Shown in pieces: positions 6,877-60,536 of a stretch of DNA of 64,000 nt. A program made the translations under genes and the position numbers. The DNA is from an uncultured Acidobacteriota bacterium (lineage in GTDB: Bacteria > Acidobacteriota > UBA6911). How positions within the stretch are numbered: position 1 is the first letter of the stretch; each line of letters starts with the position of its first letter. Where the stretch lies: assembly GCA_963809485.1 (NCBI GenBank), contig CAWEJX010000004.1, positions 128,001 to 192,000 on the forward strand, read 5' to 3'. The notes below the pieces were generated by a model. The model worked only from the letters and a program-made list of their open reading frames with translations, ran no database searches and was not told where the DNA came from.

Positions 6877-6900
6877 TGCGTCTGCCGGCGAGGCTGATGA

Positions 6901-7298
6901 GTCAGGCACCTCCGGCAAAGCCGGAGGCTTGAAAGATTTGAACCGCTCAAAGCGGTTGGACTAGTTACGCCGGTCTTGAACGCTGACTTACGCGGGCAAA
7001 AGCCGATGAGGCGCTTCCGATCCCCGCAGGGGCCAGCGCTCCGCGCTGGACAGTTTTCTGCGGCGGCACTGTGGCAAGCGCCGTGCGGCAAGGAGATGAA
7101 GGGTATGAGGAACCGGGCGTTTGCCACAGTACCGCCGCAGAAAACTCCATCGGAAGCGCCTCATCGGCTTTTGCTCGCCGACCCTCGCCGAACAAATCGG
7201 CGTTTGTCAGCGCTTTTGTCAGCGTATCTCAGCGTTTCAAAATACGGAGCTGTCAAACTCCATAAGTCCCCCGGCAGAGCCGGGGGTTTACCAATAGA
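6901..7298 (-). mobile_element. Non-autonomous IS200/IS605-ended palindromic element, copy A (long form)
   Basis: Subterminal hairpins CCTCCGGC-AAA-GCCGGAGG, AACCGCT-CAA-AGCGGTT and CCCCCGGC-AGA-GCCGGGGG. Near-identical to 50721-51112. No transposase. Confidence 0.75.
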
Positions 7299-7301
7299 AT
7301 T

Positions 7302-14020: not shown

Positions 14021-15181
14021 CTAACCCGCGGCAATTTCGTTCAACGCCGTTGCCGCCTGACGGACATCCTCCTTTGTTGAGAGAATTCCGACGCTGAACC
14101 GCACCACACCTTGAGGAAATGATCCAAGGTGTTTGTGCGCGTAGGGAGCGCAGTGCAATCCGGCGCGGACCGCTATTCCATACCGTTCATCCAGTATCGC
14201 CGCGAGTTCCGTAGGCTCGAATTCCGAAAAATTGATTCCCACAAGGCCGATCCGTCCTTCCCCCCGGCGTTCGGCAATAGCCCTGTCAGCGCCGTACCAG
14301 TTAAACAATTCAGGGGCTTTGAAGGCGCGGTAAAATTCGGCGATCAGGGCTCTTTCGTGAGCCAGGATACTTTGTACCCCACGGTCCAGCAGAAGCTTTA
14401 CGCCCTCCCGCAGGCCGGCAATTCCAAAAACATTGGGAGTCCCTCCTTCGAGGCGATGAGGCAACTCTGATGGTTGAACCGGCGACGATGAGTCTCCCCC
14501 GGTCCCTCCCTCGCGCCACGGAGACACCTCAACACGTTCTCCGACCAGTAGTCCGCCGGTCCCCGTGGGGCCGAGCAGCGCCTTGTGCCCTGTAAATGCC
14601 AGCAGATCGATGCAATCACTATCGAAATCAATCGGCACCACACCTGCGCTCTGCGACGTATCGACAAGGAAGACCGAGTTGCGTTCGCGCACAATCCTGC
14701 CTATCGTGCCGATAGCCTGGATTGTGCCGGTCACATTCGAGGCATGGGTCAGGGCAACCAGGCGTGTGGATGGCTTGAAAGCTTTTGCCACCTCATCAGG
14801 ATCGATGACGTGATCGCTGCCGGCCTGCAATCGAGTCAGCGTAATGACGCCATGCCGCTCCATCTGATTCAGCGGGCGTGAAACCGAATTGTGCTCCAAT
14901 ACGGAAGTAATCGCGTGATCTCCCGAACGGAGCACCCCCTTGATCGCCATGTTGAGCGCGTCGGTTGCATTCAACGTAAAAACCACGCGCTCCGGGCGCC
15001 TGAATCCCATAAGACGGGCAATCAACCTCCTGGTCTCATCCACCATCGCCTCCGCCTCAACGGCCAGGCGGTGGCCGCTGCGTCCCGGATTGGCTGCAGC
15101 CGACCGGATGAAGGCATCCATGCCTCGATAGACCTGCTCCGGTTTGGGAAACGATGTCGCTGCATTATCCAGGTAAATCAT
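14021..15181 (-). CDS. Class V aminotransferase, cysteine desulfurase/selenocysteine lyase-like
   Basis: 'IYLDNAATSFPKP', 'EHNSV', 'HASNVTG', PLP lysine in 'TGHKALLGP', 'RAGLHCA'. Confidence 0.9.
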   Translation of the reverse strand: MIYLDNAATSFPKPEQVYRGMDAFIRSAAANPGRSGHRLAVEAEAMVDETRRLIARLMGFRRPERVVFTLNATDALNMAIKGVLRSGDHAITSVLEHNSVSRPLNQMERHGVITLTRLQAGSDHVIDPDEVAKAFKPSTRLVALTHASNVTGTIQAIGTIGRIVRERNSVFLVDTSQSAGVVPIDFDSDCIDLLAFTGHKALLGPTGTGGLLVGERVEVSPWREGGTGGDSSSPVQPSELPHRLEGGTPNVFGIAGLREGVKLLLDRGVQSILAHERALIAEFYRAFKAPELFNWYGADRAIAERRGEGRIGLVGINFSEFEPTELAAILDERYGIAVRAGLHCAPYAHKHLGSFPQGVVRFSVGILSTKEDVRQAATALNEIAAG

Positions 15182-15198
15182 ACTGTGCCTCCCGAGCC

Positions 15199-16245
15199 TC
15201 AGTTGCCGACATAACGAGCATAGAGGGATTTGGCAACCGCTACATCGTATGTGCCGTTGATAATGGCCCGTCCGTCAGGAAAAACGGTCAACTGATAGCC
15301 GTCAATGGTTGCTTTCAGTAGAAACCGGTTGCGTTTCAGATGGGCGAGCGGGCCGAGTCTTTGGGCCAACTCTTCCAGGTCGATCCGGGTGTCTTCACGC
15401 CGTCTGATTTGCACCGAGTTACGACCGCAGAGTGTCGTCACATCGGCGCCCAATCGTCCATCAAGATAGGCAAAATCCTTAAGCCCGCAGCACGGACAAT
15501 CGCGTTTCCGGTGAGGAGCGCCGATCGCTTCGTGGCGGTTGTCCCAAAGATCTGTGGATATTATTTTGCGGTTTACGGCTTCCCTTCTGCCTGCCAGAAT
15601 TTTAAGCGCTTCTGCCACCTGAGTCGCAGCAATGACTGAAACGATCGGGCCGATCACGCCGGCAGTGTCGCAGGAGGGCGATACGCCGGGCGGGGACGCA
15701 TCCTCGAACACGCAACGCAGGCAGGGGGTTTCTCCCGGCAGCACTGGAAATGTCAGCCCATAGGATCCCACACACGCCCCATAGATCCAGGGGACATTAT
15801 TTTTTACCGCATAGTCGTTGATCAGAAAGCGCGCCTCAAAATTATCGGTGGCGTCCATAATCAGGTCAAAGCCGCCAAGAAGATGGTCTGCGGACGCGGC
15901 ATTCAGGTCCTCAACCAGCCCTTCAACCTTGATCAGCGAATTTGCGCAGCAAAGCTTTCTCTCGGCTGCTATGGCTTTGGGCATAACAGCCTTGACGTCT
16001 TCCTCGTCGAACAGTATCTGCCGCTGCAGGTTGCTCTCCTCTACAAAATCCCGGTCGACAATGCGCAACGTGCCGACACCTGCACGCGCAAGCAGCGAAG
16101 CCTGCACCGTGCCAAGGGCTCCGCAGCCGACAATGACGACGCGCGAGGCGATGATTCGCGCTTGCCCCTCCTGACCGATTCCCTGGAATAGAACCTGCCT
16201 TGAATAGCGCGAATGCACCGGGGTAATAGTGCCTGATGTCGTCAT
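15199..16245 (-). CDS. ThiF/MoeB-family adenylyltransferase
   Basis: 'RYSRQ', GCGALG, 'DRDFVEESNLQRQ', 'DATDNF', and CxxC Zn motifs (PCLRC, CPCC). Confidence 0.9.
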   Translation of the reverse strand: MTTSGTITPVHSRYSRQVLFQGIGQEGQARIIASRVVIVGCGALGTVQASLLARAGVGTLRIVDRDFVEESNLQRQILFDEEDVKAVMPKAIAAERKLCCANSLIKVEGLVEDLNAASADHLLGGFDLIMDATDNFEARFLINDYAVKNNVPWIYGACVGSYGLTFPVLPGETPCLRCVFEDASPPGVSPSCDTAGVIGPIVSVIAATQVAEALKILAGRREAVNRKIISTDLWDNRHEAIGAPHRKRDCPCCGLKDFAYLDGRLGADVTTLCGRNSVQIRRREDTRIDLEELAQRLGPLAHLKRNRFLLKATIDGYQLTVFPDGRAIINGTYDVAVAKSLYARYVGN

Positions 16246-16325
16246 GGATACCTCCCGGGGCCAATGATTCCTCCATCAGCCCAGCAGCCACGATAGCCGT
16301 AACCGGCCGGCATCATGGCCAATCT

Positions 16326-17295
16326 TCATACAGGTATGTTTTGAAACAGTATTGACGAATGATACCTATCCGCGGAATCGGGCAGTATCACGACTATGAG
16401 TTTTCCCTCGTTTTCCGGCCGTGCGGCAACTTTCACGGCAGCTGCCGTCGCCGCTCCGGAAGAGATGCCCGCCGTGATGCCCTCTTCTTTGTGGAGGCGA
16501 TGGGTCATTTCAATCGCCTCGTCGCTGGTCACTCTCTGCACCTCATCCACGATGCTGAGATCAAGGACCTCCGGCTTGAAGCCGGCGCCTATGCCCTGGA
16601 TCTTGTGCGGACCTGGTTTTGGAGGTTCGCCATGGATGACAGCGGTCAGCACAGCTGATTCGGAGGGCTCAACTGCGACGCTCCACAGGGATTTGTGCAT
16701 TGCCCGCTCAATATACCGGCTCACACCCGTGATGGTTCCTCCGGTTCCTACTCCCGCAACCAGAATGTCGATCCCGCCGTCTGTATCATTCCAGATCTCC
16801 GGCCCCGTGGTCTGATAGTGGATTTCCGGGTTGGCCGGATTTTTAAACTGCTGCGGCATCCAGTACTTCTTCGGGTCCGAAGCAACAATTTCTTCGGCCC
16901 TGGCAATGGCACCCGACATCCCCTTGGCGCCCTCAGTCAGGATTACGTCCGCCCCGAACGCCTTCAGCATTCGCCTTCTTTCGAGCGACATGGTTTCCGG
17001 CATCGTCAGCACCAGCGGATAGCCCCGGGACGCTGCGACGAATGCCAGGGCTATGCCCGTATTGCCGCTTGTGGGTTCGACAATGGTTACGTCGCTGGAC
17101 CCAGGCTTCAGGATTCCGTCACGTTCCGCCGCCCAGATCATGGATGCCCCAATCCGGCATTTGACCGAATAGGATGGATTGCGGCCTTCAATTTTTGCCA
17201 CCACAACGGCGGGCAAGCCGGCGGTGATACGGTTCAGTTTGACAAGCGGGCGTATTACCGATGGAAAGCGAGTTGTCGTCATATATTTTTGCCAT
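16326..17295 (-). CDS. cysK: Cysteine synthase A, with a single-base frameshift near 17249
   Basis: The true N-terminus [16 protein letters not shown] (ATG 17295, AGGAG RBS) is one base out of frame with LVKLNRI. Motifs '[11 protein letters not shown]', 'EPTSGNTG', 'GVGTGGT', 'PHKIQGIG'. Confidence 0.92.
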
Positions 17296-17379
17296 ATTCT
17301 TCTCCTGATTCGCATTTCTCCCGAAATCGAAATCAACCTCCACGATCCGACGCTCAACCGAAAAGCGGGCCCCCCGTCT

Positions 17380-17827
17380 CTAGATCGAGTATGTCAGAGC
17401 CGTAGCTTTCTGCCTCCTGGCCTCATCATCGACCAGGTCCTGGAAACTGGTCCGGTCATACACATCCGAAACCGCTTTTGCCGCGCGCTTCCACATGTCG
17501 AGGAAAACACAGTTGCCGGAAAGAGTGCAGCTTCTAGCAGACATGCCGGTCATGCATTCAACCGGGACCAGAGGGCCCTCGACGAATTGCACAATCTCTC
17601 CAACCGATAATTGCGCGGGGTTGCCGGGCCAGAAAATATCCTCCCTCCGCTCCGCGCCGCGACTGGACGAATCCTGCCTGCCTTAGCTGGCCCAGGATGA
17701 CTTCGAGGAAGCGCAAAGGGATCGCCTGAGTGTCTGCAATATCACCGATCCTGATCGGGCCCTCGCCGTGCCTCCGGGCCAGTTCAAACACCGCTCGAAT
17801 TGCATACTGGCATTTCTGGGAAACCAT
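17380..17827 (-). CDS. Rrf2-family (IscR/CymR-like) regulator, frameshifted in the G4 run at 17617-17620
   Basis: '[10 protein letters not shown]', '[12 protein letters not shown]'. After removing one base it continues '[20 protein letters not shown]...C...C', retaining three Cys. Confidence 0.9.
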
Positions 17828-17899
17828 TTTACTCCGCGATGCGCTAATCGAGTGGCGCCTTGGATCACGCTATTCATGCCCGGGTCCCTGTGCATCAGT

Positions 17900-19738
17900 T
17901 TATTGCCTACTGATGACAAAAACGGCCATGTCGGCAAGCAGGTTTATGTCATCCTCGACCACACGCCCCTCCTCCGTATCCAGGGCGATGCATTCGTGAA
18001 TTTGTATTCCCCGTTTCCGGCAGAACTCCTCAAAATCGGAAATTGACAGGAAACGGATATTGGGCGTGTTGTACCATTCATGGCGCAGCAGCCCTGACGC
18101 TACAGGAGATCTTCCTTCGTCGTGGAGCATGGCGCGCAGCTTGTGATAGGCAAAATTCGGAAAACTTACGATAGATTTCCGGCCCACTCTCAACATGTCG
18201 GCGATCAGGCGCTCCACATCATGGACGGCCTGAAGGGTGTGAGACAGAACCACATAGTCAAACTGCGCATCCGCGAACGCAGCCAGGCCCAGGTTGAGAT
18301 CCGCCTGGACGACATCGAAACCCCGCTGGAGGCTGGAAAGGACATCCTCCTGGTTGAGTTCAAGCCCCAGGAGCTTCCGCTCGCCATGCAAGTGGAGCTT
18401 CGCCAGAAGCGATCCTCGGCCGCAGCCGAGATCCAGCACGCTGGCTTCCGGCTTTATCAGCTTCACGATTTGATCATAGTCAAGCCTGGGCGAGCGTTGC
18501 GCCCCGAAGATGCTCGCCGGTGCATAGATATAGACGTCGTCCTCTTCGAAGCTCCTGGGTGTCCCTTGGTGGACATTATCCAGGAAAGCGCGTACAAGCT
18601 CCCCATAAATGGGCAGATCGTCCGGCAGCAGAAAGGCATCATGGCCGCACTTGCTGGCAATGTTGCAGTAGCTGACCGGTTTCCCGAGAGCGATAAGCGA
18701 ATGCGTCAGCTCGAGGGACTGCTCCGGCGGAAACAGCCAGTCGCTGGTAAAGCTTGCTATGAGCCAGCGGCATTGTGATCGGATTAGGTTTGCCTTGAGC
18801 TCCTCCGCGGTTCGCCCGAGATCGAACAGGTCCATGGCCAGGGACAGCTTGATGTAGCTGTTGGCATCGAACCGTTCAACAAACTTGTCTCCCTGGTAGG
18901 CCAGATAGGAGCCGACGCTGAATTTCTTTTCGAACTCGGTTTCGATTTCGCGCGGCCGCAGCCGGTCTGCGCCAAACTTCTCCCGCATGGATTCCGGAGA
19001 GAGGTAGGTGATGTGGCCCAGCATGCGGGCCAGCGCAAGGCCGGCCGCAGGAACCGCGCCGTTATCGACATATTGGCCGCCGTTGAAGTTGGCGTCGCGC
19101 CGTATAGCATTGCGCCCGACCACATCAAAGGCCAGGGCTTGCGTCGTCAAGCGGGCTGAAGTGGCAAGCGCAACCGCTCCGGCCACCTCGCCGGGATATT
19201 GTATGGCCCACGTCAGGACCTGCTGGCCGCCCATGGATCCGCCGATCACCGCAAGAAGGCGGCGAACCCCAAGGTGCTGCACAAGCCTTCGTTGTGTATT
19301 GACGATATCGTGAGTTGTGATGGTCGGGAAGTCGGCTCCATACCTGCGTCCCGTTTCCGGATTCAGGCTGTTCGGCCCGGTAGTTCCGCGGCAGCCGCCC
19401 AGGGCATTCGGGCAAATAAGGAAATACCGGTCCGTATTGATCGCTTTTCCGGGTCCGACCATGATGTCCCACCAGCCGGGATCATCGGCTGCATCATGGC
19501 GAGCTACGTGGGAATCGCCGCTCAATGCATGGCAGATCAGAATGGCGTTGTCCCTGGCCTCGTTCAGCCGGCCGTAGGTCTCGTATGCCACCGCTATATC
19601 CCGGATCTGCCCGCCCAGTTCAAGCTCGAGCGGGTCCCGGAATTGGCAGCTTTGGACATGCCTGAGAGGGCGGGAGGAGCGAACGCTGTCACTGCTTTGA
19701 AATGTTTCGGCCATTTTGGCTTCACGATCCGGCTGCAT
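17900..19738 (-). CDS. metX: Homoserine O-acetyltransferase fused to a MetW-like methyltransferase domain
   Basis: 'HALSGDSH', 'GGSMGG', 'SDWLFP', 'GHDAFL'; C-terminal 'VLDLGCGRG', 'SFPNFA', 'WYNTPNIRF'. Confidence 0.92.
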   Translation of the reverse strand: MQPDREAKMAETFQSSDSVRSSRPLRHVQSCQFRDPLELELGGQIRDIAVAYETYGRLNEARDNAILICHALSGDSHVARHDAADDPGWWDIMVGPGKAINTDRYFLICPNALGGCRGTTGPNSLNPETGRRYGADFPTITTHDIVNTQRRLVQHLGVRRLLAVIGGSMGGQQVLTWAIQYPGEVAGAVALATSARLTTQALAFDVVGRNAIRRDANFNGGQYVDNGAVPAAGLALARMLGHITYLSPESMREKFGADRLRPREIETEFEKKFSVGSYLAYQGDKFVERFDANSYIKLSLAMDLFDLGRTAEELKANLIRSQCRWLIASFTSDWLFPPEQSLELTHSLIALGKPVSYCNIASKCGHDAFLLPDDLPIYGELVRAFLDNVHQGTPRSFEEDDVYIYAPASIFGAQRSPRLDYDQIVKLIKPEASVLDLGCGRGSLLAKLHLHGERKLLGLELNQEDVLSSLQRGFDVVQADLNLGLAAFADAQFDYVVLSHTLQAVHDVERLIADMLRVGRKSIVSFPNFAYHKLRAMLHDEGRSPVASGLLRHEWYNTPNIRFLSISDFEEFCRKRGIQIHECIALDTEEGRVVEDDINLLADMAVFVISRQ

Positions 19739-19741
19739 GGG

Positions 19742-21049
19742 TTATATCTGCGATGCAGTCAAAGCCTGATCGAAGTCCTCGCGGATGTCCTCGATGTCCT
19801 CGATGCCGACTGAGACCCGTATATACTCTTGATTGACCCCGGCTTTCCGCTGCTCCTCCTCGGTCAGTTGGGAGTGGGTGGTGGAAGCAGGGTGAATGAC
19901 CAGTGTTCTGGCATCCCCGATATTCGCAAGGTGACTGGCGAGTCGGACATTGTTGATAAACTTTATCCCTGATTCCCTGCCGCCTCGAATGCCGAAACCC
20001 AGGATGGCGCCGGCGCCTTTCGCCAGGTAGCGCTGCGCAAGCTCGTAGTGCTTGTGGCCCGGCAGGCCGGGATAATTGACCCAGGTGACCGCGGGGTGTT
20101 TTTCAAGCCATTGAGCCAGCGTTAGTGCATTGGCAACATGCCGCTCCAGGCGGACATGCAGTGTTTCCAGCCCAAGCAGGAAAAGAAAGGCTGCAAAGGG
20201 ACTCATGCATGCGCCCGTGTCCCGGAGCCAATGAGTGCGGATGTGAAGGATGTAAGCCAGATTCCCCAAAGCCTTGGTCGCTTCCGTAAAAACCAGGCCA
20301 TGATAGGCTTCATCCGGCGCTGCGAATTCGGGCCATTTTTCAGGATTTTGCGCCCACGGGAACTTTCCGCTGTCGACAATTGCCCCGCCGATGTGCACGC
20401 CGTGGCCGCCGATGAATTTGGTCGTCGAATACACGACAATGTCTACTCCGTGGTCGATGGGACGGAAAAGCGCCGGAGTCAGGACGGTATTGTCAACAAT
20501 CAGGGGAAGCCCGCGCTGATGGGCGAGATCGGAGATTTTTCGGAAATCAGGAATGTCGTTTTTGGGATTGCCCACCGACTCGAGATAGACAAGCCGTGTC
20601 TTGTCATCGGCCAACCGGCTGATCTCTTCCGGATGATCAGGATCGAAGAAGCGCGCCTCGACGCCCAATTTCCTGAAGGTCTGGGAAAAAAGCGTCCATG
20701 TTCCGCCATATAAACTGGTTGAGGAGATGAAATTCTGCCCGGAATGGGCAATCGTCAGAATTGCGGCCGTAATAGCCGCCTGGCCGCTCGAGAATGCCAG
20801 GCCGCCGATTCCACCATCAAGGGCCGCCAGGCGTTTTTCGAGTACATCGCAGGTGGGATTCATCAGCCGCGAGTAAATATTGCCGGATTCCTTCAGCGCA
20901 AAAAGGTTGGCGGCATGCTCGGGACTTTGGAAAACGTAGCTGCTGGTTGCATAGATCGGGACGGCGCAGGCCCTTGTCGCCGGATCCGGTTCCTGTCCTG
21001 CATGCAGCGCCAAAGTTGCCAAACGGTGCCTGTTGCTTCCTTCGCTCAT
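19742..21049 (-). CDS. metY: O-acetylhomoserine sulfhydrylase (aminocarboxypropyltransferase)
   Basis: 'GNIYSRLMNPT', 'YGGT', 'STTKFIGGHG', 'HLANIGDARTLVIHPASTTHSQL'. Confidence 0.95.
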   Translation of the reverse strand: MSEGSNRHRLATLALHAGQEPDPATRACAVPIYATSSYVFQSPEHAANLFALKESGNIYSRLMNPTCDVLEKRLAALDGGIGGLAFSSGQAAITAAILTIAHSGQNFISSTSLYGGTWTLFSQTFRKLGVEARFFDPDHPEEISRLADDKTRLVYLESVGNPKNDIPDFRKISDLAHQRGLPLIVDNTVLTPALFRPIDHGVDIVVYSTTKFIGGHGVHIGGAIVDSGKFPWAQNPEKWPEFAAPDEAYHGLVFTEATKALGNLAYILHIRTHWLRDTGACMSPFAAFLFLLGLETLHVRLERHVANALTLAQWLEKHPAVTWVNYPGLPGHKHYELAQRYLAKGAGAILGFGIRGGRESGIKFINNVRLASHLANIGDARTLVIHPASTTHSQLTEEEQRKAGVNQEYIRVSVGIEDIEDIREDFDQALTASQI

Positions 21050-25098: not shown

Positions 25099-28000
25099 CT
25101 AAAACTGGAACCGGGCGACTATGATCCCCGCTCGAGGTGCAACGGCCACGGTAGTCGTATTGATGTATCCGAAGCCGGAAATCGTCTGGCCGGTGGCCGG
25201 GTTTCTGGTTTGCGTGGCTTGGGCGTTCGTCGATGTGGGACTATTCATCTCGGTGCGGTTGAAAATGTTTGAGAAATCCGCCCGTATATTGATCGAGATC
25301 CCCTCCTTGATCGGGAAATTGCGCGCGAGACTCATGCTTTCACCGGGCCGGCGCTGCTGCCGGTAATCGTTGTAATACGCGGCTCCGGTGCCGAATTGCC
25401 CGGCAGGCGGATCGACCCAGGCGTTCTTATTCAGAACAAATTCCTGGTTCGGGTCGATGCAATGACAGTTGAGATCCTTGGTGTAGAGGTCCTCCCCCGG
25501 TACCCGGTTGGCATAGGTGTTCTGGAAGAGCACCGAGCTGAGCTGATTTTGCGCGACCGGAGCCAGAATCGGCATGCCGCTTGCGTACTGCAAGGTTGCG
25601 CCGATCGTCCAATCCCGGAGTATCCAGGACGCAATCTTGTTGGCATTCCATGTCGGCACGGTGTAATTCGCCGCAATCACGAAAACAAGGGGCCGGGAGA
25701 GCATGGAAAGGTACTTGTTCACGCGCCGGTCGAAAACATTGTTTATCGCTGCGCCGCTTACTCCCATAGCATTCCCCTGCTGCTCCGCACCCATGGTCAG
25801 CTCTTTCTGCCAGGTAAAAGCAGCGGTGAAATCAAGCCCATAGGAATAGCGTTTGGTAACCTTTGCCTGCAAGGAGTCATACCAGGTTCTGCCAAGGGGC
25901 GCCCACATATATCGGATCGCGGGCGTACCGGTGGTCGTGCCTGCAAACTGCGGAAACGGGCGCAACGACTGGGCTACGGTAGACGACATCGGAAAGCCCT
26001 CATAGGGCGGTATGTTGAATCCGCGTTGCGCCGCCAGCGACGAATTCAGCGGAGAGGTCAGCAGCTTCCGGTCATCCGCGTTGTTGACGTTGAGCCCAAA
26101 AGAGGCAATACGCTCGGCTGACAACGCATTGACATTGATCAGGTCGTTGGCTTCCCACCAGGCGCCGCGGTTGCCGACATAGGAGATCTCCACGACCAGG
26201 TTCCTTAAGATCTCGTGCTGAATGCCAATGCTCCATTGGAACTGCCTCGGCGGCCGGCCGGCGTTGCCATCGATTGCGACCGGGGGCGCGCTGAGCGTGC
26301 CTGCAAGAGGATACAAACCGGCATCCAAGACAGGCCATGGCCTCGGAGCAGGCATGCCGTTGCGCAAGAGGCCCGCCGGATTGCCGTATGCGGGCGAGTA
26401 ATACGGGTTGCTGGAGCCGACCTTCCAGGATGCCTGATTTTCGTTGGCTGTTTGGCCGTAAGAGACGCCCAATCCCATACGCAGGACGGTTTTGGGCGTA
26501 ATCTGATATGCGGCTCCCAACCGCGGACCGAATGCATAGGGGTATACCTCCGCGAAGTCACAGTTGCACTGACCCGGTCCGGAGCCTTCATAAATCACGG
26601 CCCCCAACAGGCCGCCCGCGGATGGATTCGGGGTTGTGGGCGAGAAACTCGCGATCCGGCCGTGCGGATCCTTGAAGTACTCCTGGTAATCCCATCTAAG
26701 TCCGTAGTCGAGCGTAAATCTACGGGTAACCTTCCAGGTATCCTGGGCGTATGCCGACCATGCGGATTTACCCAGCCGGGGGTCGCTGGGAACCCCGCTG
26801 TTGCCGTCAGCAATAAGCCCCAGGAGAAAACTCGCGTAGGGGAATCCAATGGTGCCACCCTGCAAAGGCTGCCCCAGAATCGAGGGAAGACCGGTCTGCT
26901 CCACGCCGAAGTTGTAATAACCGTAGGAGGGGGCATAGAGTGTGGTGGGATATTTCTCCTGGCGCAATTCCGCGCCGAACTTCAAGGTGTGGTTATCCTT
27001 CACCCATGTAAGGCTGGCGCTTCCGGAAGGTTTGAACATAACCGATTTGGTTTGCATATAGGGGCCCATGTTGCCGGTCGCCATGCTGACCGCTCGCGCC
27101 GACATGCCGCCGCGAGCCGCCGAGAGTCCAGAAATGAATGGGAAGACGGTGTACAGAGATCCCGGAAGACCGAGTTCTTTGAGCTGGTCAAAATTGGTAT
27201 CGTATGCGGGATCCAGGAACTGCAGATTCTGGACACCGGCAGCCAAATGAAGCACCATGGTCGGCGTGACGGTATAATCAAAGGCCATCTGCGCTATATA
27301 AGACTCCTGGTCCGTATTCCTTTCGGTGGAGACCGGAGAAGGAATGCCGTCTCCCCCCGGAGGCCCGGGCGCGTGCTGGTTCAGGATATCTGTCGATGAC
27401 CAGAAGAACGAAAGCTTGGTGCGGTTGCTCAGGTTGTGGTTGATTTTGAAGGCCGGGATGGTTCGAATGTTGGGGCTGTCCCAGGGATTCAGATAGTTAA
27501 GTGTCACAGCCGCGCTCGTGGGTTCCGGAATGAGATTTTGGATCTTAACCGCGACCGGATCGAATCGGTCCTGCGGAATTGTGTTATTGGTAAACGGATC
27601 TCGAACGCGCAGTCCGTTAACGAGGCGTTCGGTCTGCGGATCGTATATCGTGCCTTCCATAATTGGACGGCCAAGGGGATCGCAATTGGGATTCGCCGTT
27701 GGACAAAGATTCTTCCCTGTCAGAGCTTGGCGGAAATCGCCGCTGCGATAAGCGAGAGTGGGCATCGTATATGTGGTATTAAACTTGGTCACCTCGCGGT
27801 ACTCCTCGAAGCTGAAAAAGAAGAACGTCTTATCGTGGCCGTCGTAAACCTTTGGGATGTAGACCGGCCCGCTGAAGGTGAAACCATAGTTGTTCCTGCG
27901 TACGCGGCTCTTCCTGTTTATAAAGGGCGTACTTGCGTTTAGCGCTTCATTGGACCAGTAGTCGTATGCGCTTCCGTGGTAGGAGTTGGTGCCGGATTTC

Positions 28001-28716
28001 ATGGTGATATTGAAATAGCCGCCGCCGGCCTGTCCGAACTCGGCGGCGTAGTTGCTGGTCTGAATCGCGTATTCCTCAATTGCGGCCATGCTTTGCTGGC
28101 TCATCCCCGTGCTCTGCTGCAGCATTCCGTTTGTGGCCTCCATTCCGTCGACCCGGATGCTCATCGAGGCGGAAGGGGCGCCATTGACGCGAAACCAGGC
28201 TCTGTTCTGGTAGAGCGTGCCCGGAAGCAGCGTCATCACCGCATAGGGATCTCGAATGATATTGGAAAATCCTAAAATGGGCAGGTTATCCACGCGCGTG
28301 CCGGTGACATTATGGCTGAGTTCGCCGCTTTCTGTTTTCAGGAGCGGCGCATCGGCGCTGACCGAAACAGTTTCGGTGATGGTGCCGACCTCCATCGCGA
28401 TATCAATGCGCAATGTCTGCGCAACCATGACCGTGATTCCGGTTCGTAAATACTGCTTGAATCCGGCCTGGGTTGCCGTGATCTGATAGACTCCGACCGG
28501 CAGTTGGGCCAGGGTGTAATTGCCAGTCGCCGAACTGACAGTCTGATAAACGGCCCCCGTTTGTGTGTTTTTGGCTTCAATCTGGGCTTTCGGGATCATG
28601 GCGCCGGCCGGGTCCGAAATGGTCCCGGTTATGGTGCCCCGGTCGCTTTGAGCCGAAGCCGGGGCTGCTGCGAAGATTAGACAAGCAACTGCAATCAAAC
28701 ATGCAACTGAACGCAT
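25099..28716 (-). CDS. TonB-dependent receptor with N-terminal carboxypeptidase-regulatory-like domain (Oar-like)
   Basis: Signal peptide; 'GTITGTISDPAGA', 'SNYAAEFG', 'KSGTNSYHGS', 'YAQDTWKVTRRFTLDYGLRWDY'; C-terminal 'ARFQF'. AGGAGG RBS before 28716. Confidence 0.92.
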   Translation of the reverse strand: MRSVACLIAVACLIFAAAPASAQSDRGTITGTISDPAGAMIPKAQIEAKNTQTGAVYQTVSSATGNYTLAQLPVGVYQITATQAGFKQYLRTGITVMVAQTLRIDIAMEVGTITETVSVSADAPLLKTESGELSHNVTGTRVDNLPILGFSNIIRDPYAVMTLLPGTLYQNRAWFRVNGAPSASMSIRVDGMEATNGMLQQSTGMSQQSMAAIEEYAIQTSNYAAEFGQAGGGYFNITMKSGTNSYHGSAYDYWSNEALNASTPFINRKSRVRRNNYGFTFSGPVYIPKVYDGHDKTFFFFSFEEYREVTKFNTTYTMPTLAYRSGDFRQALTGKNLCPTANPNCDPLGRPIMEGTIYDPQTERLVNGLRVRDPFTNNTIPQDRFDPVAVKIQNLIPEPTSAAVTLNYLNPWDSPNIRTIPAFKINHNLSNRTKLSFFWSSTDILNQHAPGPPGGDGIPSPVSTERNTDQESYIAQMAFDYTVTPTMVLHLAAGVQNLQFLDPAYDTNFDQLKELGLPGSLYTVFPFISGLSAARGGMSARAVSMATGNMGPYMQTKSVMFKPSGSASLTWVKDNHTLKFGAELRQEKYPTTLYAPSYGYYNFGVEQTGLPSILGQPLQGGTIGFPYASFLLGLIADGNSGVPSDPRLGKSAWSAYAQDTWKVTRRFTLDYGLRWDYQEYFKDPHGRIASFSPTTPNPSAGGLLGAVIYEGSGPGQCNCDFAEVYPYAFGPRLGAAYQITPKTVLRMGLGVSYGQTANENQASWKVGSSNPYYSPAYGNPAGLLRNGMPAPRPWPVLDAGLYPLAGTLSAPPVAIDGNAGRPPRQFQWSIGIQHEILRNLVVEISYVGNRGAWWEANDLINVNALSAERIASFGLNVNNADDRKLLTSPLNSSLAAQRGFNIPPYEGFPMSSTVAQSLRPFPQFAGTTTGTPAIRYMWAPLGRTWYDSLQAKVTKRYSYGLDFTAAFTWQKELTMGAEQQGNAMGVSGAAINNVFDRRVNKYLSMLSRPLVFVIAANYTVPTWNANKIASWILRDWTIGATLQYASGMPILAPVAQNQLSSVLFQNTYANRVPGEDLYTKDLNCHCIDPNQEFVLNKNAWVDPPAGQFGTGAAYYNDYRQQRRPGESMSLARNFPIKEGISINIRADFSNIFNRTEMNSPTSTNAQATQTRNPATGQTISGFGYINTTTVAVAPRAGIIVARFQF

Positions 28717-29038
28717 CGGGTGTATCCTCCTATCGCCTGCAATTTTATTGGCGCACAGAAACACGCACCGCTTATGGCTCCCTTGCCAACTTTTCGACTA
28801 TTGCATCCCCTCTCAACCTATTGCCGCATCGCATAGCTCGCTCAGATTGGCGGCGGTGACAGCGCGCCCTTCTCGGGCAACAACGTCAAGGAACGGCAGG
28901 GGCGTTATCGGGCTCCACTGAAAATCTGTTTCTGTTTGACAATATTATCTGCGGCGGTGTCCATTTGCGTGAGTTGTACGCGCCGCTACTAATGGTGATT
29001 TTAAGCTAGTCGATTTGTCAACTCGTTGTCAAGAAAAT

Positions 29039-29373: not shown

Positions 29374-31161
29374 ATGAAAAACAGAGCAAGTTGTTTGCTG
29401 ATAGGGATCTTTTGGGTGACGGCCCTTTTGTCGGAATCGCTTTGGGCCGCGGATATTACAAAGATCACGGTGCTGAATCCGCGAGGCGTTCAGCCCCCGA
29501 TACGCTTGATACCCATGGCTCCCCGCCTCGATACATTGGATGGGAAGACGATCTACGTCGTGGATACCAAGTATCCGTTGACAAGGCCATTCGTACAGGA
29601 AGTCTTCAATGTGCTCAAGGAGAGGTATCCAAAAACAAACTGGATATTCCGGGACAAAATCGGCAGCTATTTTGATGATGATCCCAAGCTTTGGGCCGAG
29701 ATCAAGGAGAAAGGCCACGGCATGGTTATGGCCGTCGGGCATTGAAGCACCTGCTCGCCGGCGGTCGCCGGCCATTGTATCTCGGTTGAGAAGTTGGGTG
29801 TGCCAAGTGCCCCCATCATTACCGAAAGGTTTCAGGACCTTGTCCGGACCATTTCATGGAAGAAGGGGGTGCCGAACATGCGCTTTACATTTGTTCCGCA
29901 TCCCGTTGCAGGCAAAGCCGCCGACATTTGCCGTCGATACTTGCTGGGCAACGATCCGCTGACAGGAAAGCCGGTTGTGGACGAACTTGTGGCGGCCTTG
30001 ACGCGACCGCTGTCCGCGGACGACATGAAGAAGGGATTTCTGACAAGAGATCCGCGGCCGAGAATGCTGAAACCTGATACCGCAGCAAACCTGGAAAAGC
30101 TATTCAATGACAGTCTGTGGACGGACGGGCTTCCTATTGTGCTTCCGACAGAAGACAAAGTCGCCGAGATGCTCAGGGCCACCAGTCACAAGGCGGATGA
30201 GACCGTAGGCACGATGCGTCCGTCGCCTCCGCACGAAGCGTGGGAATACACGGTCGAAATGGTTGCGGCCAACGCGGTGATGGCGGGAGCAAAGCCCGAA
30301 TATTTTCCGGTTATCCTGGCCCTGGCCTCAACGGGAGTGACCTCGCTTTTCACATCTACGACGTCTTTTGCCCGGATGATGGTGCTGAACGGGCCGATCA
30401 TCCAGCAGATCAATATGAACACAGGCATTGGAGCCATGGGACCTTTCAATCAGGCTAATGCCACGATTGGAAGAGCCTGGACGCTAATATCCAAGAACCT
30501 GGGCGGAGGAGGGGTTCCCGGCGAAACCTATTTGGGCAGCCAGGGCAGCAATCTCAATTACAACAATCTGTGTTATCCGGAAACGGAAGATGGCTTGCCT
30601 GCCGGGTGGAACCCTCTCCACGTGCAAAAGGGTTTCAAAAAGAACGACAGCGTCGTGAGCACCTTCACGGGCTGGAGCATCAGCAACTATGGCGGCTACA
30701 TAAGCCTGCCGCACAACGAAATCATGAAGTGGCAGCTGCAAAACTTTTTCACGAGCGGGACCGGAAGCAATGGGTCGGCTACTCTCCTGTTGGATCCCGT
30801 GGTCGCCAGAGACCTGAAGGATAGGTTTGACACAAAAGAAAAACTGGTCGAATGGCTCGCTCAAAATGCCACGACGCCGGCCTGGCATTACTGGGCTCGG
30901 GGAGAAGATCAGCTGAAACAGGCAAAATCGGGGGTCGAACCTTTTGCGTCCTATCTGAAATTGGGGGAGATTGCGTCATTGCCCGTTTCGCCCTTCCTCC
31001 GGAGGCCTATGGCTGCGAAGACTCCATCTCAAGGCAAGCCGCCCGACGGCCCTCCGCGCTCCCCGATCGAGATCATTGTGGTGGGAGGAGGCACGAATGC
31101 CTTCTGGGTTGCGGGAGACTTCAGCTATGTCTCCAGTGCTTCCGTCGACAAGTGGAGGTAA
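29374..31161 (+). CDS. Exported UGSC-type selenoprotein 1 (595 aa, Sec124 in U-S-T-C)
   Basis: ORFs 29374..29745 and 29794..31161 are in the same frame and separated only by TGA 29743-29745. Read-through gives 'AVGH-U-STCSPAVAGHCISVEKLGVPSAPII'. Sec-pathway signal peptide. Confidence 0.88.
29757..29772 (+). promoter_or_regulatory. Bacterial SECIS-like hairpin 1
   Basis: GCCGGC-GGTC-GCCGGC starting 11 nt after the UGA. Confidence 0.8.
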
Positions 31162-31281
31162 CGCGCCGCAGCGAAATTCGCCCACGGAATATCCTGTGGT
31201 TTTGAGTTTCCCTATGGAGTCGCAGTGCTGACGGTAATGCACGCGGTTCATGTCCATTTTTCGTTCAAAGGAGATCAGATC

Positions 31282-33042
31282 ATGAAAAAGAGGATCGGTT
31301 GGCCGGCATTCGCAGTTTGTCTCCTTGCCTGCCTTGTTATTTCGTGCACCCAAAATCCGGAACAGCGGACGCTTACGGTCTTGAATCCTGTCGGCTCGGC
31401 TTCTCCGACTCCGCTGATCCCGATGGCGCCTCGCCTGGATACGCTGGAAGGAAAGACCATCTATATCGTGGATGTGATGTATCCGCTCACTCATCAGCTA
31501 TTCGAAGAAATGCAGAAAGTGCTGTCCGAAAAATACCCCAAGACGAACTGGGTGGTCAAAAGCAAGGCGGGCACCTACTTTGATAATGACCCTAAACTGT
31601 GGGAAGAAGTCAAGGCGCAAGCCCAGGGAATGATCATAGGCGTCGGCCATTGAAGCAGCTGCACGCCGGCGGTCGCCAGCCATGCTATTACGGTCGAGAA
31701 ACTTGGAGTGCCCACAGCCCCCATCGTCACCAGTCGATTTCAGGATGTCTCAGAAGCCACTGCCGCCAGCAAGGGCATGCCCCGGGCACGATTCACTTAT
31801 ATCCATCACCCGGTTTCGAACAAGCCTGCGGCGGAGTGCCGAAAATACATCGAGGGCAACGATCCTTTGACCGGCAAACCGGTGGTTGAGGAGATTGTAG
31901 CCGCTCTAACCAAACCATTATCGGATGAGGATAAAAAGACCGGGTTCGTGGAAAAACCTCGGGAAAGGCTGCTAAAACCCGATACAGCGCAGAATCTGGA
32001 GCGCCAGTTTCTGGAAAATGGGTGGACCGACGGGCTCATGATAGCCCTCCCCACCGAAGCAAAGGTTTCAGAAATGCTCAAGGCGACCAGCCACAAGCCT
32101 GATGAGATCGTGGGCCAGATGATGCCTTCGCCGGCTCAGGCGCCGTGGAAATACACGGTCGAAATGGTTGCAGTCAACGCCGTGATGGCAGGCGCCAAAC
32201 CGAAACACTTCCCTGCCATCCTGGCTCTGGCTGCAACGGGGCAGGGTTCGCTGCCTTCGTCAACGTCCTCTATGGCGAGAATGATAGTCCTCAATGGACC
32301 CATCAGGAACGAACTAAAGATGAACATGGGAATAGGAGCGCTTGGGCCCTTCGATGAGACCAATGCGGTCATTGGAAGAGCTTGGACGTTTATCACCAAA
32401 AACCTGGGAGGGGGCGGAAAGGCCGGGACCACGTATCTCGGAACCTTCGGAAACAACTACAACTACAACAATCTTTGCTTTGCCGAAAAAGAAGAAGACC
32501 TCCCATCCGGCTGGAAACCGTTGCACGTACAAAAGGGCTTCAAGCAGGAGGAGAGCGTTGTGAGCGTGTTTAACGGCTGGACCTTGCTTAATTACAGCGC
32601 CTACAATCCGGATCCTTATCACGAGCTGATGAGACGTCAGATGGTAGCGCTGGAAATGAGCGGAGCCGGCGCTCATCATACTCCGGGTGTAAACATACAA
32701 ACCGCAGGGATGTTGATTATAGATCCGGTGACAGCAACGGCGCTTAAAGAGGATGAATCCTTCGAAACGAAAGAGAAACTCAACCAGTGGTTGACGGAAA
32801 ATGTGCACTTTACTATGTGGAACTACTGGAATGCCATGCCGGATTATCTCAAAAAGGCCAAGGAAGGAGTCCAACCGTACGCCTCCTTGTTGAAACGAGC
32901 GCCGGAGTCCGATTCCCCGCTGCAGCTTTTTAGCCCCAGGGCGGGAGTGGAAATTGTCGTGGTGGGAGGGGGAACCAATCCTTACTGGTACGCCGGCGAC
33001 TTCCGTTATCTGGCCAGCGCCTCTATAGACAAATGGAAATAG
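31282..33042 (+). CDS. Lipoprotein UGSC-type selenoprotein 2 (586 aa, Sec124 in U-S-S-C)
   Basis: In-frame TGA 31651-31653; 'GVGH-U-SSCTPAVASHAITVEKLGVPTAPIV'. Lipobox-like 'VISC', AGGAG RBS. Paralog of the preceding gene over its full length. Confidence 0.88.
31665..31680 (+). promoter_or_regulatory. Bacterial SECIS-like hairpin 2
   Basis: GCCGGC-GGTC-GCCAGC (one mismatch) starting 11 nt after the UGA. Confidence 0.75.
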
Positions 33043-33055
33043 TTGAGGTTGAAAA

Positions 33056-33622
33056 ATGAGATTCTCAACTGCTTGTGCGATCTTTTTGATCCTCGCATTG
33101 GCTTTTCTTGTTGCCTGTGCGGAGAAACCGGCCCCTGCCCCGGAGCAGAAGCCCGGGGCAGGCTTTTCGTCCGCTGATGCGGCATCGATCGGAACGACCG
33201 TGCCGGCGATGGTTGAACTCAGTGACATGTATGTTTCACCTGAAACATACGACCTCAAGGTGACGGTCGCTGAAATAGTTCGCGGCGAAAAGGCCGGAGA
33301 GTTTTTAAAGAAGGCAGGCGCATCCGAGACACAGATCGGGACTGATTCAGAATACCTTCTCGCGCGTGTTCGTCTTGAATACAGCGCCCGTGGCGCTCCG
33401 GGAGATAAGCCCTGGGAACTGAGCGGAGCGCAATTCAATGCTTACTCTGAAGAGGGCAAGCCCTTCGGGAGCGCCTCGATTGTGGCGTCGCAATCAGGTC
33501 TGACTCCATCGCTCCGTTCCGGGGATACTCTGGAATGCTGGCTTGCATTTGCGGTGGCGAAAAGTGACAGGAAACCGGTAATGACCCTTAATCCCGGAGG
33601 CGTCTGGTTTCGCCTTTACTGA
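33056..33622 (+). CDS. Lipoprotein, DUF4352/Ig-like
   Basis: Lipobox 'LVAC'; beta-rich pattern 'EYLLARVRLEY...LRSGDTLECWLAFAV'; starts 13 bp after selenoprotein 2. Confidence 0.65.
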   Translation: MRFSTACAIFLILALAFLVACAEKPAPAPEQKPGAGFSSADAASIGTTVPAMVELSDMYVSPETYDLKVTVAEIVRGEKAGEFLKKAGASETQIGTDSEYLLARVRLEYSARGAPGDKPWELSGAQFNAYSEEGKPFGSASIVASQSGLTPSLRSGDTLECWLAFAVAKSDRKPVMTLNPGGVWFRLY

Positions 33623-58778: not shown

Positions 58779-60536
58779 ATGAAGAACAAGATACTGATTG
58801 GCAGTTCTCTGATCGTGCTTATTGCCTTGATTTGCATTGCGATAGCGCCGTCCGCGACAGGTCAGGCCGGCGCGGATAAGGAGTGCGAGGAACTGCTGTT
58901 AAATGTCCTGAATCCGTCGATTTCGACCAGGATGGTGGCGAGGGTTCCGCTCGCCCCCCGTGCCGACACCCTGGAAGGGAAAACCATCTATATGGTCGAC
59001 CTGCAATGGGGCGGGCCCGAAGCCGCGTACAGCGTTTTTGAGGAGATGCAGGGCTGGTTCGCCCGAAACATGCCTTCGGTTAAGACCGAGGTTCGAAGGT
59101 CCAAAGGAGGCTGGATGGGCGGCGATGATCCCGAACTCCGGAAGGAGATAATTGGAAAGAAGGCTGCCGGCGTTATCGTCGGGATCGGTGGCTGACATGG
59201 CTGCGTATCGGCCGTGAGCCGATTCGCCAGAAGACTTGAAGAAGAATCCAAAATACCCACCGTTGGCGCCTCCGGCATCAACGTTGTGAAATTCAAGGAT
59301 TACGAGCTTAAATACTCCAACGGCATGCCCATCCGTTATGTCGCGTTCCCTTTTCCCGTCGCGGGCCAGCCGAAATCCGTACACAAGGCCTATGTCGAAG
59401 GGAAAGATCTCCTGGGCGGGAAACCAATGATGCAGGCGATCATTGAAGCGCTTACAAAACCTCTTACCGATGAGGAAAAGAAAAGCGGAATTCCTCCGGA
59501 AGGGGCCCCGCAGCCGAGGCTGCTGAAGCCCGATACCGAGGCCAACCTGCAGCGTCTGTTCAAAGAAAAAGAGTGGACGGACTTTAATCCCATCATCCTG
59601 CCCACAGAGGAAAGAGTCGCCGCGATGCTCAAGGCGACCAGCCACAAGCCCAACGAGGCGGTGAGCAAAATGGGTTCGCGGGAATTGACCGTGGAAAAGG
59701 CGGCTGCTATTGCCGTCATGGCCGGCGCAAAACCCGAATATTTCCCGACCCTTCTCGCAGTTCTTACCCAGGCGGGGTCTTTCGGCAACTCCACAAGTTC
59801 CATGGCAAGCATGATCGTCGTGAACGGGCCGATCCGAAAGCAATTGGGAATGAATTCGGGAACCGGAGTGATGAGTCCCTATAGCGAGCCCAACTCGGTC
59901 ATAGGCAGGGCCTTCGCGCTGGCGGGCAAGATCATGGGGGACTTGCGTCTCAAGGAAACCGTCTATACGTCGATTGGCAACAATCTTCAATACAATAACG
60001 TGTGTATCGCGGAGAACGAGGAAGAGCTACCCCAGGGATGGGAGCCTCTCAGTGTGGAACTGGGCTACAAGCGGACGGACAATGTCGTCAGCATAGGCAC
60101 CGGATGGAGCTACATATCGAGTGTGGGTGAGGCCCAGCTGAACCATCCGCCCCATATGATGTTCCGGGACTACATGAGATCCCTCGCCGGAATGGGGGCT
60201 ACGATCATCATGGATCCGACCGTAGCCGGCCTGCTCAGGGACGCGCACGGCTTCAAGACAAAGGCCGAACTGAGTGAATGGCTGTCGAAGAATGTGGAAG
60301 TAGCCGCCGCCACCTATTGGGGGAACGGCGTCAACGCTACTGCAAGCTCGCCTATGGCGTTCCAGGGGCTGGAACCTTTCGCCACATGGAAAAAAGTCCC
60401 TCCTGAAACACTGATCAAGCCGTTCACGAATGCCAAAGCCATCCAGTTTGTGGTCGCAGGCGGAAAGATCCAGACCACCTGGTTTGCAACGGATTTCAGA
60501 CTCGGCCGGGGGATTTTGATCGACAGCTGGAAATAG
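58779..60536 (+). CDS. Exported UGSC-type selenoprotein 3 (585 aa, Sec139 in U-H-G-C)
   Basis: ORFs 58779..59195 and 59214..60536 are in frame across TGA 59193-59195: 'GIGG-U-HGCVSAVSRFARRLEEESKIPTV'. Signal peptide; paralog of the two genes at 29-33 kb. Confidence 0.88.
59203..59227 (+). promoter_or_regulatory. Bacterial SECIS-like hairpin 3
   Basis: ATCGGC-CGTGA-GCCGAT starting 11 nt after the UGA, extended by GCG/CGC across a T-T mismatch. Confidence 0.78.

Follow-up and report, generated by a model that had tools for sequence, protein, structure and literature searches.

Tandem genes of an uncultured Acidobacteriota bacterium predicted to encode exported selenoproteins with a UGSC-family domain

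Introduction

GrdB (protein B of glycine, sarcosine and betaine reductase) and PrdB (of D-proline reductase) are selenoproteins with a U-x-x-C motif, where U stands for selenocysteine (Sec), and their Sec serves as the nucleophile or redox centre that acts on a small amino-acid substrate. Both enzymes act in the cytoplasm, together with pyruvoyl partner subunits. Another selenoprotein family, named after its UGSC motif, was first reported by Zhang and Gladyshev from marine metagenomes (PMC2398784). The passages of that report on this family count 255 Sec forms and 21 Cys forms in ocean metagenomes, describe the family as more frequent in non-marine samples, suggest a thioredoxin-like fold, and mention a fusion to a conserved 'Unknown_1' domain (Figure S1A). 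The sections of later reviews that deal with the family still list it without a function (PMC9312934, PMC13188914). Here we analyze a tandem pair of genes, located at positions 29374 to 33042 of a 64,000-nucleotide stretch of DNA (hereafter the window; GenBank assembly GCA_963809485.1, contig CAWEJX010000004.1, positions 128,001 to 192,000) from an uncultured Acidobacteriota bacterium, which very probably encode exported selenoproteins composed of a UGSC domain fused to a large second domain.

Like the described UGSC proteins, the two window proteins have U-x-x-C at the Sec position and no known function. In contrast to the classic form, which stands alone (the NCBIfam model NF041046 has 147 positions, and stand-alone frames of relatives measure 177-266 aa), they are joined to a domain of about 390 residues, carry an export signal and belong to a set of 52 copies in their genome. 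They also resemble the known exported selenoproteins, which combine a signal peptide or lipoprotein signal with Sec and are typically split at the TGA in databases, as is the case here; the folds and motifs of those proteins are nevertheless unrelated to the ones described below, and none has been reported with dozens of paralogs per genome. A literature search, with most subscription journals outside its reach, returned no paper tying UGSC proteins or large selenoproteomes to Acidobacteriota.

Results and discussion

Four open reading frames that read as two genes

With translation table 11, the locus contains four open reading frames (ORFs). The first, 29374..29745, encodes 123 aa and ends in TGA, and its frame continues in 29794..31161 (455 aa from TTG); the third, 31225..31653, encodes 142 aa from GTG or 123 aa from the ATG at 31282, also ends in TGA and is in frame with 31708..33042 (444 aa, GTG start). 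The initial annotation of this DNA took the four ORFs for two read-through frames, and both single frames were recovered by reading TGA as U: 29374..31161 (595 aa, gene 1) and 31282..33042 (586 aa, gene 2). Exactly one odd codon is present in each frame of about 590 codons, namely a TGA at codon 124; the position of U at residue 124 in both copies, as previously claimed, is correct for gene 2 when counted from ATG 31282, the ATG that precedes its signal peptide. The two proteins are 57% identical and contain all the motifs quoted for them, i.e. GH-U-STC, GH-U-SSC, WTDGL..LPTE, AVMAGAKP, NYNNLC, and a terminal DKWR or DKWK. The features of the locus and its surroundings are listed in Table 1.

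Table 1 Features of the selenoprotein locus and related features of the window.
Feature	Position	Strand	Evidence or remark
Gene 1, predicted exported UGSC-fusion selenoprotein P0001, 595 aa	29374..31161	+	One in-frame TGA; Pfam UGSC; AF2 model
Gene 1, predicted signal peptide, about residues 1-25, MKNRASCLLIGIFWVTALLSESLWA	29374..29448	+	Cleavage site placed by eye; passes heuristic
Gene 1, UGSC-family domain, residues 33-187, flavodoxin-like	29470..29934	+	Spans the TGA
Gene 1, UGA read as Sec124 (GH-U-STC)	29743..29745	+	Translation and paralog alignment
Gene 1, bSECIS-like hairpin GCCGGC-GGUC-GCCGGC	29757..29772	+	Stem from 14 nt after the U of UGA
Gene 1, C-terminal domain, residues 205-595, without known family or fold	29986..31158	+	Pfam, PDB and Foldseek searches
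Gene 2, predicted lipoprotein-type UGSC-fusion selenoprotein P0002, 586 aa	31282..33042	+	One in-frame TGA; Pfam UGSC
Gene 2, putative lipobox V-I-S-C (Cys22), end of signal peptide	31336..31347	+	Sequence pattern only
Gene 2, UGA read as Sec124 (GH-U-SSC)	31651..31653	+	Translation and paralog alignment
Gene 2, imperfect bSECIS-like hairpin GCCGGC-GGUC-GCCAGC, one C.A mismatch	31665..31680	+	Fails the strict hairpin test
Small exported protein, 188 aa, 13 nt downstream of gene 2	33056..33622	+	Conserved neighbour; weak DUF4352 match
Third family member, 585 aa, signal peptide, Sec139, GG-U-HGC	58779..60536	+	TGA at 59193-59195; hairpin AUCGGC-CGUGA-GCCGAU
TonB-dependent receptor, divergent	25099..28764	-	Context only; no systematic link to the family

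Evidence for selenocysteine at the UGA

The alignment of the Pfam family UGSC (PF24696; gathering score, 25 bits) crosses the TGA in both genes, with 92.2 bits for gene 1 (residues 33-187) and 108.9 bits for gene 2 (residues 33-188), and it places U-S-T-C and U-S-S-C at the position of the family motif. The third window copy also matches (31.3 bits). Membership of the N-terminal part in the UGSC family, as the initial annotation proposed, is thus upheld, but the kinship with GrdB and PrdB that it also suggested is not: the GRDB family (PF07355) matches no UGSC locus at E <= 1, and we rejected that assignment. The sole GRDB match in the genome (32 bits, model positions 223-344) lies elsewhere, in a 184-aa open frame without a stop at contig C20:1216512-1216865.

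The source genome is a metagenome-assembled genome (MAG) of 6.04 Mb in 21 contigs, 95.67% complete with 7.32% estimated contamination. A search of this genome for the Sec machinery found all components: selA (462.6 bits), the wing domain of selB, tRNA-SeC(tca), and selD (contig C8:80982-81905). The selD gene carries an in-frame TGA of its own, hence SelD is probably itself a selenoprotein here.

PF24696 matches 58 places in the genome, 41 of which have an in-frame TGA, and most of the open frames span about 560-670 codons. Using our own profile, built from the TGA-read-through frames, we collected 52 near-full-length paralogs. TGA occupies the aligned Sec column in 40 of them, with frames open downstream, and the other 12 have S, A, G, T, L, or M at this column and Cys in no case. 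A Cys three residues further on (+3 Cys) is found in 37 of the 40 Sec paralogs, compared with none of the 12 others. Because the UGSC domain crosses the TGA and 40 of 52 paralogs share the TGA column, these frames are more than a chance occurrence. Fragments of the family and copies with several TGAs are also present in the genome. At contig C4:341548-348037, beyond the window, three tandem paralogs read SW-U-GAA, with Sec but no +3 Cys, and carry the hairpin GUGUUCA-GUC-UGAAUAC; lacking a resolving Cys, they fit a simple redox-pair model poorly.

Outside the genome, the site is covered by 33 full-length database homologs; Cys occupies the Sec column in seven of these, six of them as CxxC (e.g. 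GHCSTC). The expectation of Cys or Sec at this column was therefore borne out in part: natural Cys forms exist, but in other homologs the residue is L, M, S, A, G, T, or H. Nearly all of these other homologs lack the +3 Cys too, the exceptions being the GQLDTC forms of Dehalococcoidales and one M..C sequence. Since most of them look redox-dead and natural Cys forms exist, they do not refute Sec. We also fetched 13 related loci from other assemblies and inspected 10 of them (L019, L021, and L025 were left out). All 10, from MAGs and single-amplified genomes labelled Acidobacteriota except for one Gammaproteobacteria and one Thermodesulfobacteriota, read GH-TGA-S[ST]C, at 11 sites in total. Likewise, the metagenome contigs covering 29743-29745 have TGA, with no other letter listed, and two records bridge the codon. 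In three metagenome DNA runs, the summed contig depth over 29681-29807, which contains the UGA and the hairpin, was 77.9, 95.5, and 37.8, versus about 0-30 in adjacent bins, likely because many paralogs and relatives share this conserved stretch.

The machinery, the TGA-bearing paralogs, the Cys homologs, and the hairpins described below all favour Sec, in agreement with the initial proposal. From these sequence comparisons, we predict with high confidence that the in-frame UGA is recoded as Sec in both genes.

A hairpin downstream of the UGA

Bacterial Sec insertion sequence (bSECIS)-like hairpins follow the UGA. In gene 1, the stem of GCCGGC-GGUC-GCCGGC begins 14 nt past the U of the UGA. 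A strict test required a stem without mismatches of 5 bp or longer and a GU-containing loop of 3-7 nt that begins 14-34 nt from the UGA. Among the Sec copies, 27 of 40 passed, with the loop always starting at nt 19-23. The corresponding figure was 2 of 12 for the non-Sec copies, and the background, taken from the other codon positions of these genes, was 9.8% (2815 of 28728). Different subfamilies have unrelated stems at this distance, at least eight in all, for instance GUGGUGGG/CCCGCCGC, GUUCGGCGA/UCGCCGAAU, GUGUUCA/UGAAUAC, and CGGGGGC/GCCCUCG.

Codon usage in the USTC subfamily was compared over nine sequences, namely the two window genes and seven sequences taken from other assemblies. 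The six codons of the stem-loop are almost devoid of synonymous change, and the nucleotides of codons 5 and 7, counted from the UGA, never vary, indicating that the hairpin is under constraint at the RNA level. Conversely, the flanking codons 2 and 12-16 each show 5 to 6 different codons (only 2 for codon 15), and all four Thr codons are used at codon 2; these synonymous changes point to selection acting on the encoded protein in the interval from the TGA to the following start codon.

Export signals

The N-terminus of copy 1 consists of MKNR, LLIGIFWVTALL, and SLWA, which we read as a signal peptide. Copy 2 starts with MKKRIGWPAFAVCLLACLVISC, in which MKKR and AFAVCLLACL are followed by a VISC lipobox. 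These and all other export calls come from inspection by eye and a crude signal-peptide test of our own. Of the 40 Sec paralogs, 34 passed this test; the numbers were 6 of 12 for the non-Sec paralogs and 795 of 2496 for the control ORFs. By eye, export also looks likely for three of the six failing Sec copies, and signal peptides were seen by eye in all seven orthologs inspected. The sequence patterns agree with the earlier description of a periplasmic and a lipid-anchored protein.

In two Sec paralogs (starting at contig C12:202393 and contig C4:293827), twin-arginine-type signals, RRAFFKG and RRAFLRD, replace the general secretory-type signals. A selenoprotein exported in the folded state by this route would have to fold or take up a cofactor before it leaves the cytoplasm.

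Domain architecture and conservation

The AlphaFold 2 (AF2) model of the gene 1 protein has a predicted local distance difference test score (pLDDT) of 92.3 and a predicted template modelling score (pTM) of 0.91. The chain shows no break, and the pLDDT exceeds 95 around residues 110-140 and is below 60 for residues 1-20. The N-terminal domain is modelled as alternating strands and helices in a flavodoxin-like arrangement (a thioredoxin-like fold was suggested in the UGSC passages of PMC2398784), and Sec124 and Cys127 are predicted to lie at a strand-to-helix turn. According to the model, this domain of about 155 residues would be rigidly packed on the C-terminal domain of about 390 residues. 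When the full-length model was compared with the Protein Data Bank (PDB), the matches were to the flavodoxin-like N-domain only.

Modelled alone (residues 205-595), the C-terminal domain gave a pLDDT of 91.8 and a pTM of 0.91. It had no match in Pfam at E <= 10, nor did a 78-sequence profile of it match PDB sequences at E <= 10, and Foldseek returned no PDB structure at E <= 0.001, the best being a class I fumarate hydratase (E 0.072, probability 0.08). The domain was described as uncharacterised from the start, and it remains so by family, sequence, and fold; it is a confidently modelled domain without a solved relative.

Twelve columns are identical in all 52 paralogs (P36, E139, P144, D251, P258, A298, M303, A304, G305, P312, G340, and N362), and columns kept in 46-51 of them include R51, T259, N349, R367, and E403. 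In the 78-sequence alignment, E295 reaches 90% or more and is thus nearly invariant. The Cys of NYNNLC, which had been considered as possibly close to the U-x-x-C motif, is kept in only 15 of the 40 Sec paralogs and 3 of the 12 others, so it is no conserved partner of that motif.

Size and spread of the family

The window pair is not a curiosity of its locus, being two of about 40 Sec-bearing paralogs in the genome. PF24696 matches were present in all 24 other genomes of the same genus, with 9-45 in each, and 139 of the 150 matches listed for these relatives carry one TGA. Among 16 genomes from other families of the class, two had one match each, both in short stand-alone frames. Taken together, the sequences point to a genus-wide expansion to dozens of Sec-bearing paralogs in uncultured Acidobacteriota.

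A word-indexed protein search yielded 5239 matches at E <= 0.001 among 8000 candidates scored. The closest database proteins are fragments of 427-483 residues starting after the TGA, and the full-length homologs (561-636 residues, 50-57% identity) come largely from Dehalococcoidales and Chloroflexota; all named matches are 'hypothetical protein'. With the C-terminal domain alone as query, 3619 clusters (at 50% identity) were found at E <= 0.001 and 2050 at E <= 1e-10. The best 150 of the 3619 clusters start after the TGA or carry the N-terminal domain, apart from a few longer forms that are unexplained. The genes are split or shortened in databases because the Sec codon is read as a stop, and thousands of public homologs are accordingly called as two fragments or as a shortened 'hypothetical protein'.

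The Sec-less homologs of Dehalococcoidales and Chloroflexota (e.g. P0052, P0073, and P0078) have the same two-domain build, 51-57% identity over 95% of the length, and the same C-terminal invariants. The eight that we aligned differ from the window proteins by the lack of a signal peptide and by GQLDTC or GHMDTL at the motif, and some have an insertion of about 36 residues.

The relatives from other assemblies are labelled uncultured Acidobacteriota. Parts of the stretch analyzed were found in 20 sequencing runs, from soil, wetland, and bioreactor metagenomes, each holding less than half of the sampled words. One RNA run contained five short contigs of 90-99% likeness, none of them bridging a UGA.

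This one family gives at least 40 selenoproteins in a single genome. In the parts of the literature that report selenoproteome sizes, the records comprise 46 genes for Desulfosediminicola flagellatus (PMC12013277), at least 57 genes for an Olavius symbiont and 63 predicted genes for a Methylomirabilota MAG (PMC13188914), and these record sets of 46 to 63 genes are spread over many families (PMC12013277, PMC13188914). With at least 40 members of the UGSC family plus SelD, the present genome is in the range of the record selenoproteomes, although we claim no record. Such numbers indicate a strong and unexplained selenium dependence of uncultured soil and wetland Acidobacteriota.

Proposed function and alternative interpretations

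By their sequences, the window proteins appear to represent the known UGSC selenoprotein family in a fused and exported form, and exported UGSC-fusion selenoproteins are very probably the best overall explanation of the locus. One protein of about 590 residues would be made from each gene, with UGA codon 124 decoded as Sec by means of SelA, SelB, SelD, and tRNA-Sec and with the help of the GGUC-loop hairpin, whose stem starts 14 nt after the U of the UGA. The product of gene 1 would be exported through a cleavable signal peptide and that of gene 2 as a lipoprotein. The Sec/Cys pair could then form a selenol/thiol redox or nucleophilic centre for a small organic substrate, perhaps one bearing a carboxylate, held by the polar residues D251, T259, E295, N349, N362, R367, and E403 of the C-terminal domain, and the paralogs would differ in substrate. 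GrdB and PrdB share the U-x-x-C motif and serve as a working analogy for this mechanism only; they differ by their cytoplasmic location and by their pyruvoyl partner subunits, the like of which was not seen here.

That the proteins are periplasmic selenol/thiol redox or nucleophilic enzymes, with a pocket provided by the C-terminal domain, is a tentative proposal that falls short of being likely. A broader version of it is somewhat more doubtful still: the family would be a previously unrecognised class of extracytoplasmic selenoenzymes with a catalytic domain of new fold, which radiated in one Acidobacteriota genus of anoxic soils and wetlands into dozens of substrate-specific paralogs that transform organic matter in the periplasm by reductive or nucleophilic chemistry. 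If this were true, these bacteria would be among the most selenium-dependent organisms known, and soil carbon turnover would be tied to selenium supply. No function has been assigned to the UGSC family since 2008, and its fused exported form supplies natural Sec, Cys, and redox-dead variants for working out its role.

Several observations weigh against exported selenoproteins, or against their being enzymes. The hairpin of gene 2, with its C.A mismatch, does not pass the strict test, and the same holds for 13 of the 40 Sec copies; moreover, the hairpin counts are not independent events, because paralogs and orthologs are related by descent. A scan of the whole window against Rfam gave no match, and the folding energy of the 68 nt after each UGA is no better than that of shuffled sequences (z = -0.81 for copy 1 and +2.21 for copy 2), such that, of the RNA folds tested, only the short local hairpin is informative and not the global 68-nt folding. 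The equivalog model NF041046 scores 62.4 and 76.3 bits, below its cut-off of 125, and the window proteins thus seem to be relatives of the short stand-alone UGSC protein rather than its equivalogs. The source genome is a MAG with the contamination given above. Many homologs have L, M, S, A, G, T, or H in place of Sec, which suggests that the UGSC domain does not need a redox residue to function and makes a catalytic role less convincing. Finally, no consistent gene context points to a function, the neighbouring families being only modestly enriched (see below).

The loss of the redox residue leads to the best surviving alternative, which we nonetheless consider rather unlikely: the C-terminal domain would be the functional unit, as an enzyme or a binding module, and the UGSC domain a regulatory or structural addition, e.g. 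a redox switch. It would account for the 12 of 52 paralogs that have neither Sec nor Cys at the site and no +3 Cys, and for the eight aligned homologs of Dehalococcoidales/Chloroflexota type, all of which lack Sec and Cys at the site while five (GQLDTC) keep the +3 Cys. All the Sec-less paralogs and homologs retain the C-terminal invariants, and E139, P144, and R51 of the UGSC domain are conserved with or without Sec. However, the costly Sec has been retained in 40 paralogs and across phyla, and the best 150 of the 3619 C-terminal clusters, save the few longer forms, begin behind the TGA or include the N-terminal domain.

A second alternative, which we judge unlikely, accepts the proteins as real selenoproteins, with the U-x-x-C motif (together with His123 in this subfamily) binding a metal or metalloid, or carrying or sensing periplasmic selenium or sulfur species. 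H-U-x-x-C is plausible as a soft-metal site in proteins that are predicted to be exported, the three tandem UGAA paralogs dispense with a resolving Cys, some paralogs adjoin molybdenum/tungsten enzymes, and exported substrate-binding selenoproteins with metal-like sites have been proposed in a preprint, in the part bearing on this question (bioRxiv 10.1101/2022.07.06.499078). Yet the His before Sec is confined to one subfamily, the others having GD-U, GG-U, or SW-U; the +3 Cys kept in 37 of the 40 Sec copies is typical of redox pairs; and the large invariant polar set of the C-terminal domain looks enzymatic.

Far less probable is that the TGA is a true stop, each gene pair yielding a 123-residue exported peptide and a separate cytoplasmic protein of about 450 residues from TTG or GTG. 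This is the default table 11 reading; public gene calls render close relatives as the 427-483-residue proteins mentioned above, and the hairpin of copy 2 is imperfect. But the downstream start would then lie inside a helix of a single domain recognized by both Pfam and AF2, and the 17 codons from TGA to TTG are conserved as protein while changing synonymously. A stop also sits badly with a TGA column common to 40 paralogs and 11 ortholog sites, with uninterrupted full-length homologs of 545-667 residues, and with the complete Sec machinery of the genome.

An assembly or binning artefact, or pseudogenes in which the TGAs are errors or decay, can practically be dismissed despite the contamination of the MAG and the existence of fragments and multi-TGA copies, given that the same TGA recurs in contigs of other metagenomes covering the site (two records bridging it) and in 10 independent loci of other assemblies, that the family is present in 24 of 24 same-genus genomes, and that each frame of about 590 codons holds a single stop.

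Genomic context

The gene that follows the pair encodes the small exported protein of Table 1. Of the 52 family members, 8 have a homolog of this protein no more than 3 kb away, compared with 1.1% of random segments, and seven of its nine copies in the genome are near a family member. At three MAG loci (L018:4216-4770, L020:4223-4792, and L022:4225-4794), homologs with 34-38% identity are directly downstream of the orthologous gene; together with the window copy, they measure 184-189 aa. The DUF4352 match of this protein is weak (E 0.041, below the cut-off). On these comparisons, it counts as a conserved downstream neighbour of the USTC/USSC subfamily.

We considered the TonB-dependent receptor as a systematic partner and rejected it: such receptors lie within 3 kb of 3 of the 52 members, versus 6.7% of random segments. 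An MFS transporter is likewise near 3 of the 52 members. Modestly enriched neighbours are the molybdenum and FAD subunits of xanthine-dehydrogenase type, FAD_binding_2, AFOR, carboxylesterase, and CoA-transferase III, with p values from 0.0003 to 0.04 that are uncorrected and come from clustered genes, as well as DHDPS-like proteins. This enrichment is too small to assign a pathway. One of the neighbouring FAD_binding_2 flavoproteins carries a twin-arginine (Tat) signal. The ORF set of the genome is itself unusually rich in oxidoreductases, with 41 xanthine-dehydrogenase-type molybdenum proteins, 21 AFOR-like, and 18 FAD_binding_2-like, and it includes 17 CoA-transferase III-like and 52 TonB-dependent-receptor-like ORFs; some of all these may be fragments.

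Paralogs that lack a signal peptide are found amid CoA-transferase III and DHDPS-like genes on contig C12 (about 77-102 kb). At two loci of Dehalococcoidales MAGs (L043:3622-11492 and L044:1261-8275), a Sec-less cytoplasmic member is followed by two divergent DHDPS-like genes and a DUF6282 gene, with URO-D-like genes or CoA-transferases in the surroundings. Since the cytoplasmic members adjoin such genes, we infer that the ancestral form may have been cytoplasmic with a role in organic-acid catabolism, which suggests that the exported Sec forms are a derived radiation. The operons of the cytoplasmic Sec-less members are a possible handle on the substrate.

In the rest of the window, the third family member is flanked by genes for amidohydrolases, an S9 peptidase, a tannase, and an M16 peptidase. 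Upstream of the pair, 4208-10583 encodes an RND efflux system whose membrane-fusion protein has a heavy-metal-binding domain, and 11441-14016 a sigma-54 response regulator and a histidine kinase. A sulfur amino-acid cluster at 14021-21049 comprises a class-V aminotransferase, ThiF-like and PALP enzymes, a hydrolase-MetW fusion, and a Cys/Met pyridoxal phosphate enzyme.

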